DNA from: Escherichia coli | Lineage (GTDB): Bacteria; Pseudomonadota; Gammaproteobacteria; Enterobacterales; Enterobacteriaceae | DNA length: 64,000 nucleotides | Assembly: GCF_003790525.1 (NCBI RefSeq) | Contig: NZ_CP033635.1 | Reading direction: 5' to 3' (one strand) | Shown here: piece after piece, positions 2,983 through 3,347 of the stretch | Position numbering within the stretch: the first letter of the stretch is position 1 | Layout: every line of letters begins with the position of its first letter | Position numbers and translations under genes: made by a program | Notes under the pieces: model-generated | What the model saw: only the letters and a program-made list of their open reading frames with translations | Told to the model about the DNA's origin: nothing | Databases searched by the model: none

Positions 2983-3102
2983 TGCCTGGCGGCCTTAGCG
3001 CGGTGGTCCCACCTGACCCCATGCCGAACTCAGAAGTGAAACGCCGTAGCGCCGATGCTAGTGTGGGGTCTCCCCATGCGAGAGTAGGGAACTGCCAGGC
3101 AT
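2983..3102 (+). rRNA. rrfD: 5S ribosomal RNA (first copy)
   Basis: 120 nt, TGCCTGGCGG...GGAACTGCCAGGCAT, canonical E. coli 5S. Confidence 0.93.
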
Positions 3103-3114
3103 CAAATTTAGCGT

Positions 3115-3190
3115 GCTGATATGGCTCAGTTGGTAGAGCGCACCCTTGGTAAGGGTGAGGTCCCCAGTTCGACTCTGGGTATCAGCACCA
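3115..3190 (+). tRNA. thrV: tRNA-Thr, anticodon GGU
   Basis: 76 nt GCTGATATGGCTCAGTTGGTAGAGCGCACCCTTGGTAAGGGTGAGGTCCCCAGTTCGACTCTGGGTATCAGCACCA; cloverleaf with GGT anticodon and 3' CCA. Confidence 0.93.
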
Positions 3191-3227
3191 CTTTTTAGGT
3201 TAAAGTTCGGCAGATTAGAAAAGAATT

Positions 3228-3347
3228 TGTCTGGCGGCAGTAGCGCGGTGGTCCCACCTGACCCCATGCCGAACTCAGAAGTGAAACGCCGTAGCGCCGA
3301 TGGTAGTGTGGGGTCTCCCCATGCGAGAGTAGGGAACTGCCAGACAT
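3228..3347 (+). rRNA. rrfF: 5S ribosomal RNA (second copy)
   Basis: 120 nt, TGTCTGGCGG...GGAACTGCCAGACAT; the 5S-tRNA-Thr-5S arrangement is typical of rrnD. Confidence 0.92.

Follow-up and report, generated by a model that had tools for sequence, protein, structure and literature searches.

The distal end of rrnD

The window, that is, the whole 64,000-nucleotide stretch of Escherichia coli DNA that was analyzed, opens inside a 23S rRNA gene and continues through the distal end of the rRNA operon rrnD, which has its usual composition: 23S, rrfD, thrV, rrfF, and a terminator, arranged as a single transcript (Table 1). The 23S gene is assigned to rrlD from SMS-3-5, the closest relative of the source strain and nearly identical to it, where a 23S gene is annotated at the corresponding place. 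This end of rrnD was reportedly first described by Duester and Holmes in 1980. Both 5S genes are full-length by Rfam (model positions 1-120, gathering score 38); the Rfam matches span 2985-3100 and 3230-3345, and two terminal nucleotides were added at each end of each match to give the mature 120-nt genes. The tRNA gene between them has the sequence of K-12 thrV when the two are compared by eye. In total, the window contains every element of the rrfD-thrV-rrfF layout, with two 5S genes placed around a tRNA-Thr(GGU) gene downstream of 23S and followed by a terminator and a convergent yhdZ, and in 5,378 of 5,426 complete E. coli genomes a 531-bp query with this layout is covered to 80% or more. 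The layout given for rrnD in the literature is the same (PMC4696680; PMC4330394).

Between rrnD and yhdZ lies a GC-rich hairpin (3359-3384) that reads by eye, on the plus strand, as GGCCATCC-AAAA-GGATGGCC followed by TTTTTGCGTTT, and that a consensus scan flags on the minus strand. From its sequence and position, the hairpin is likely the rrnD operon terminator, a putative function; because rrnD and yhdZ converge on it and T-rich runs lie on both of its sides, it may terminate both. The coordinates of yhdZ were transferred from record L001.

The spacer at 2889-2982 and the hairpin region at 3348-3400 carry an allele unlike that of K-12 MG1655. Across 2890-3420, only 20 of 5,463 E. coli records reach at least 99% identity with the window.

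Table 1. Features at the distal end of rrnD, positions at which the two 5S genes differ, and places at which the window departs from SMS-3-5
Feature	Window position	Strand	Basis or remark
23S rRNA gene rrlD, 5' end truncated by window edge	1-2888	+	Rfam RF02541, 2839.9 bits, model positions 17-2925
23S-5S spacer, allele of SMS-3-5 type, unlike K-12	2889-2982	+	Identical to SMS-3-5
5S copy 1 (rrfD): C3-G117, C12, U13, C76	2983-3102	+	Rfam RF00001, 89.2 bits; alignment with K-12 and SMS-3-5 rrfD
5S nt 12-13 (C, U) of copy 1, loop A junction, standing alleles	2994-2995	+	Unpaired in Rfam consensus
5S nt 76 G to C in copy 1, loop E, facing unchanged G100 (window 3082)	3058	+	Private, uncompensated
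tRNA-Thr(GGU), thrV	3115-3190	+	ARAGORN; Rfam tRNA, 70.7 bits
5S copy 2 (rrfF): U3-A117, A12, G13, G76	3228-3347	+	Rfam, 90.2 bits; identical to K-12 and SMS-3-5 rrfF
5S nt 3 = U in copy 2, partner A117 (window 3344), compensatory replacement of C3-G117	3230	+	
Likely operon terminator: GC-rich hairpin flanked by T-rich runs, in the gap between rrnD and yhdZ, which converge	3359-3384	.	
yhdZ, amino acid ABC transporter ATP-binding protein, conserved downstream neighbor of rrnD	3409-4167	-	Annotation in SMS-3-5 and other genomes
5S nt 3: copy 1 C, copy 2 U	2985 / 3230		
5S nt 12: copy 1 C, copy 2 A	2994 / 3239		
5S nt 13: copy 1 U, copy 2 G	2995 / 3240		
5S nt 76: copy 1 C, copy 2 G	3058 / 3303		
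5S nt 117: copy 1 G, copy 2 A	3099 / 3344		
Difference from SMS-3-5: 23S hairpin allele	1847-1856		
Difference from SMS-3-5: 5S G76C	3058		
Difference from SMS-3-5: PrmA P45Q (L11 methyltransferase)	17394	-	Private SNP
Difference from SMS-3-5: NanE A56V	56202	+	Private SNP

Five differences between two 5S genes

An earlier sequence-only reading of this stretch had claimed that the two 120-nt 5S copies around the tRNA-Thr gene differ from each other, and they do: every string that it quoted is present where it was placed, and the copies differ at exactly five positions. The reading had also described a compensatory change from C/G to U/A in the terminal helix. This change corresponds to the nt 3-117 pair of helix I, altered on both sides, and the pair is present in the Rfam consensus as well as in the standard E. 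coli structure; because nt 3 pairs with nt 117, the replacement of C3-G117 by U3-A117 is truly compensatory. We aligned 12 5S sequences (the two window copies, the two SMS-3-5 rrnD copies, and the eight K-12 copies). In this alignment the pair is C-G in five distinct sequences and U-A in one, and no other pair has both of its sides changed. All 10 pairs of helix I, which closes the ends of the molecule, are standard in both window copies.

The internal differences noted in the same reading are real as well, but they are of two kinds. Nucleotides 12 and 13 lie unpaired in the loop A junction, whereas nt 76 lies in loop E and faces G100. Since G100 is identical in the two copies, the change at nt 76 is uncompensated; the reading had lumped GATGCTAGT/GATGGTAGT together with the other internal differences and missed its unusual status. 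Structural positions in loop E and helix IV were taken from the standard E. coli structure, the all-domain Rfam consensus being offset in this region for bacteria. Unconstrained folding of the whole 5S RNA with RNAfold was set aside, since every allele came out in a non-native fold.

One variant from outside the window deserves mention in its own right. The rrfA gene of K-12 (L160:108-227) carries C92U, which turns the G84-C92 pair of helix IV into a G-U wobble, and this is the only 5S difference within K-12 apart from those at nt 3/117 and nt 12.

Four standing alleles

Most of these differences, four of the five, are alleles of long standing that many genomes share. Copy 2 is base-for-base the rrfF of both K-12 and SMS-3-5 and recurs at 99% identity or more in 5,308 of 5,463 E. 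coli records; among the eight K-12 5S genes, U3/A117 is confined to rrfF. As for copy 1, C12 is the allele of K-12 rrfD, rrfH, rrfG, and rrfC, and the 61-nt context of C12-U13, which is the SMS-3-5 rrfD allele, has an exact match in 773 E. coli records. Known alleles were found for nt 3/117, for nt 12, and for CU at nt 12-13, and none was found for nt 76 in the 5,463 records. Positions 12 and 13 are said to be the sites of the classical E. coli 5S heterogeneity described by Brownlee, Sanger, and Barrell in the 1960s. Nothing is new, then, in the locus itself, in the compensatory pair specific to rrfF, or in the polymorphisms of loop A.

The sequence-only reading had taken all of these differences to be likely known rrn microheterogeneity and had expected alignment with a reference genome to return the known rrfD and rrfF alleles. 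This holds for four of the differences and for rrfF, which is that of K-12. It fails for G76C, which none of the 5,463 E. coli records matches exactly, and hence for rrfD, which carries C76.

A change seen in one genome

Across window positions 2890-3420, G76C (window 3058) is the sole base that separates the window from SMS-3-5. C76 occurs in none of the eight K-12 copies and in neither of the two SMS-3-5 rrnD copies. Within 5S, the C76 allele reads GATGCTAGTGTGGGG. A C76-centered query of 61 nt is matched exactly by none of the 43,412 5S-bearing places that 5,463 E. coli records hold, and the best places are all exactly one mismatch away. A 42-nt pattern with C76 in its enterobacterial context and nt 100 left free matched nothing in 241 million metagenome records. 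As a control, we looked for the opposite single change, G76 with A100, and it too is absent from all of the E. coli genomes searched; from the absence of both, positions 76 and 100 are each invariant in the searched E. coli. G76C alone costs 4.0 Rfam bits, lowering the score from the 93.2 of SMS-3-5 rrfD to 89.2. What it represents is not a new type of feature but a variant of a known gene, confined to a single genome and not observed before.

How does the rest of the window compare? The ungapped comparison with SMS-3-5 was defeated by a 2-nt indel in 23S, and gapped BLAST was used instead; over 64 kb it finds four differing places (Table 1). Two of these, PrmA P45Q and NanE A56V, are non-silent SNPs in single-copy genes, and their 61-nt contexts have no exact match in about 5,190 and about 5,200 E. 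coli genomes, respectively. Because these SNPs are private and sit in single-copy genes, real substitutions appear to have accumulated on a short branch of the source strain's own. Setting the 23S allele aside, the comparison with SMS-3-5 shows no indel over about 61 kb, so the assembly is not noisy. That one of only three isolated SNPs should have landed in 240 nt of 5S would not be expected a priori, whether the SNPs stem from mutation or from error.

The fourth place is a 23S hairpin at 1847-1856, where the window has GGGGTTAGCGGTAACGCGAAGC and SMS-3-5 rrlD has GGGGTCAGCGCAAGCGAAGC, a change of a GCAA loop to GUAA with one additional base pair. The window allele is a common inter-operon variant, found exactly in 2,070 E. 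coli records, and probably arrived by gene conversion; given how common it is, we rejected the idea that this cluster is a sign of poor assembly. Elsewhere, the SMS-3-5 annotation gives acrF (window about 8467-11564, minus strand) as a pseudogene with a frameshift; the window, identical there, presumably shares it.

Loop E and the covariation of positions 76 and 100

The complex of L25 with 5S loop E was reportedly described by Lu and Steitz in 2000. In three dimensions, the loop E motif consists of consecutive non-Watson-Crick pairs, has Mg2+ bound, and is recognized by L25. We take G76/G100 to be a bifurcated pair, as reportedly described by Correll et al. in 1997 and by Leontis and Westhof in 1998. 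PMC1976436 describes the loop E of bacterial 5S rRNA as the L25 site, built of seven non-Watson-Crick pairs with G75-A101 as the center of symmetry. Bifurcated pairs, in which one carbonyl is the hydrogen-bond acceptor for the N1-H and the N2-H of a guanine alike, are placed in loop E by PMC6617799.

What accompanies C76 where it occurs naturally? We scanned for GCCGATGCTAGT...GANAGTAGG, with the rest of loop E fixed and nt 100 free, in the genomes of 100,044 species, each represented once, and afterwards in metagenomes. The scan returned 150 genuine 5S sequences and one chance match, and the C76 loci that were sampled are 5S genes downstream of 23S by Rfam. Nucleotide 100 is A in 144 of the 150 and G in the other 6; clustered at 95% identity, the full-length C76 sequences form 13 A100 clusters and one G100 cluster. 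For background, we took 5S sequences from ten other genera (records of rrn-bearing plasmids or chromids), with window copy 2 standing for E. coli. G76 is accompanied by G100 in all nine of the sampled taxa that have it (E. coli, Proteus, Vibrio, Pasteurella, Acinetobacter, Azospirillum, Bacillus, Listeria, and Staphylococcus among them), and A76 by A100 in both taxa that have it, Legionella adelaidensis (L166) and a Pseudoalteromonas sp. (L167). Across the sampled bacteria, these sequences point to a covariation rule in which the 76/100 combination is G/G, A/A, or C/A and almost never C/G. Copy 2, with G/G, has one of these combinations; copy 1, with C/G, does not, even as it retains 13 of 14 canonical nucleotides over the loop E strands 73-78 and 98-104.

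Apart from the window, C76/G100 was found in a single uncultured proteobacterial lineage, represented by five distinct full-length sequences (records L024, L080, L100, L139, and L149, plus L021), and in one case the gene sits in an rrn operon adjoining 23S. At 90% identity this lineage joins the C76/A100 clusters, a pattern that would be expected of an evolutionary intermediate.

Two observations on these records stand apart from the argument. Two of the C76/G100 metagenome-assembled genomes (MAGs) carry labels of different classes, Thiotrichales and Rhodospirillaceae, despite 5S genes that are at least 95% identical, so that one of the taxonomic labels, or the binning, is doubtful. On one MAG contig, the 5S gene, which is truncated, is followed after about 100 nt by a glycine riboswitch (L021:194-284).

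A proposed effect of C76 opposite G100

We propose that G76C arose recently in rrfD, on the source strain's own branch, and that it replaces the G of G76/G100 in the L25-binding loop without the G100A that usually accompanies such a change. C76 would place an amino donor, in lieu of the carbonyl acceptor, against N1-H and N2-H of G100, and the bifurcated contact would be lost. Opposite A100, whose N1 is an acceptor, a reciprocal contact with C76 would be possible, and such a contact fits the observed C76/A100 covariation. With G100, C76 could instead form an ordinary Watson-Crick pair adjoining U77-A99, probably distorting loop E locally. The nearest-neighbor fold of the arm made up of helix V, loop E, and helix IV changes with C76, and a regular-helix alternative containing C76-G100 is computed at -42.7 kcal/mol versus -40.6 kcal/mol for the wild type, a gain of about 2 kcal/mol, although the nearest-neighbor model ignores the true loop E motif and these energies are weak evidence.

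In this model, we infer that G76C would distort the L25 site locally and that a 5S rRNA with C76 would be mildly impaired or nearly neutral. The change could be tolerated, in that it affects about one 5S gene in eight and leaves an intact rrfF on the same transcript. That rrnD has two 5S genes and that 5S dosage matters is stated in PMC4330394, citing Ammons et al. 1999. The combination is itself viable, because a natural lineage carries an identical loop E, and to judge from that lineage's sequences, C76/G100 may be less harmful than we infer above.

Mutation, error, or something else?

Based on the comparisons described above, we consider it probable that G76C is a recent private point mutation whose effect is buffered by the other 5S genes. 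The further proposal that the change is both real and expressed, making this strain a natural E. coli carrier of C76/G100, the rare half-way state that separates the common pair types G76/G100 and C76/A100, is put forward tentatively and as rather unlikely.

The main competitor to a recent point mutation is that G76C is an error of base calling, consensus, or polishing, or some other artifact, and that the true rrfD is that of SMS-3-5; we regard this as somewhat unlikely but in need of serious consideration. Assembly and polishing are well known to run into difficulty in rRNA repeats. The change concerns one base; it was found in none of 43,412 E. coli 5S places nor, in its enterobacterial context, in metagenomes, and it strikes a position that is invariant within the species in the genomes searched. 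Moreover, all three isolated SNPs of the window are private and non-silent, and a low rate of random error would give the same. However, about 61 kb outside the common 23S allele holds no indels, the other two private SNPs fall in single-copy genes, in which polishing seldom introduces errors, and repeat-induced errors normally import the base of a paralog, C76 being the base of no E. coli paralog in the records searched. A paralog-derived assembly error in particular, by way of mis-mapped reads, was considered and rejected, there being no E. coli 5S with C76 in the 43,412 places.

Could C76 instead mark an adaptive or specialized 5S allele, one that gives rise to a ribosome subpopulation with an altered interface between L25 and loop E? 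A diversified natural lineage retains C76/G100, so the combination can function, and functional meaning has been proposed for rRNA heterogeneity (PMC4696680). Yet the allele is limited to a single genome, with neither spread nor recurrence found in 5,463 E. coli records or in metagenomes; it has no companion change at nt 100 or elsewhere in rrfD; and the same branch bears two other private non-silent changes, as for unselected recent mutations. We therefore hold an adaptive origin to be highly improbable. Highly improbable, too, is the view that G76C belongs with the other four differences to ordinary standing rrn microheterogeneity: inter-operon variation of this kind is well documented in E. 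coli (PMC4696680) and four of the five differences are indeed shared, but the reading is refuted for nt 76 by the lack of any C76 in the E. coli collections searched (no exact match in 5,463 records, and none in the K-12 copies or in SMS-3-5 rrnD), C76 also being the sole base that separates the window from SMS-3-5 across 2890-3420.

What the variant would mean

For genome annotation, little is affected, as the locus is a textbook rrnD with mostly catalogued alleles. For the source assembly, G76C raises a flag: either the assembly is wrong within an rRNA repeat, or a nucleotide that does not vary among the searched E. coli genomes has really changed. If real, it would be a natural instance of a non-Watson-Crick pair halfway through a switch, a state that a redundant gene family tolerates, and the 76/100 rule makes the functional cost of such a half-changed state testable in E. 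coli. Should the half-way state indeed be carried and expressed, then, together with the uncultured lineage, in which C76/G100 is fixed, it would suggest that isosteric non-Watson-Crick switches may pass through an intermediate capable of Watson-Crick pairing. We speculate further that multicopy rRNA families, here through a spare 5S gene in the operon, may shelter such intermediates.

Relation to known systems

Set against the rrnD of K-12 (b3275-b3272), the window has the same gene order, the same tRNA-Thr(GGU), the same neighbor yhdZ, and the same rrfF, including U3-A117. The alleles of the 23S-5S spacer and of the terminator hairpin differ from those of K-12 and match SMS-3-5. The rrfD gene differs from that of K-12 by U13, which is also present in SMS-3-5, and by the private C76. 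With respect to the 5S heterogeneity known from classical and genome-era work, C/A at nt 12 and U/G at nt 13 recur here as polymorphisms between the window copies, whereas the G76C of copy 1 falls outside that catalogue.

The canonical loop E (A73-A78/G98-A104) is found in copy 2 and in all of the other aligned E. coli copies. Copy 1, in contrast, has at C76/G100 a combination capable of Watson-Crick pairing at a step where the motif normally has none.

Finally, the two paired sites of this locus can be compared with the compensatory evolution of rRNA helices, as outlined by Rousset et al. 1991, cited in PMC6617799. The change from C3-G117 to U3-A117 represents a completed case, and C76/G100 resembles a half-finished switch from G76/G100 to C76/A100. 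However, helix evolution of this kind proceeds through G-U intermediates, whereas the loop E intermediate would be a C/G combination capable of Watson-Crick pairing rather than a wobble, and the family of pairs concerned in loop E is a non-Watson-Crick one.
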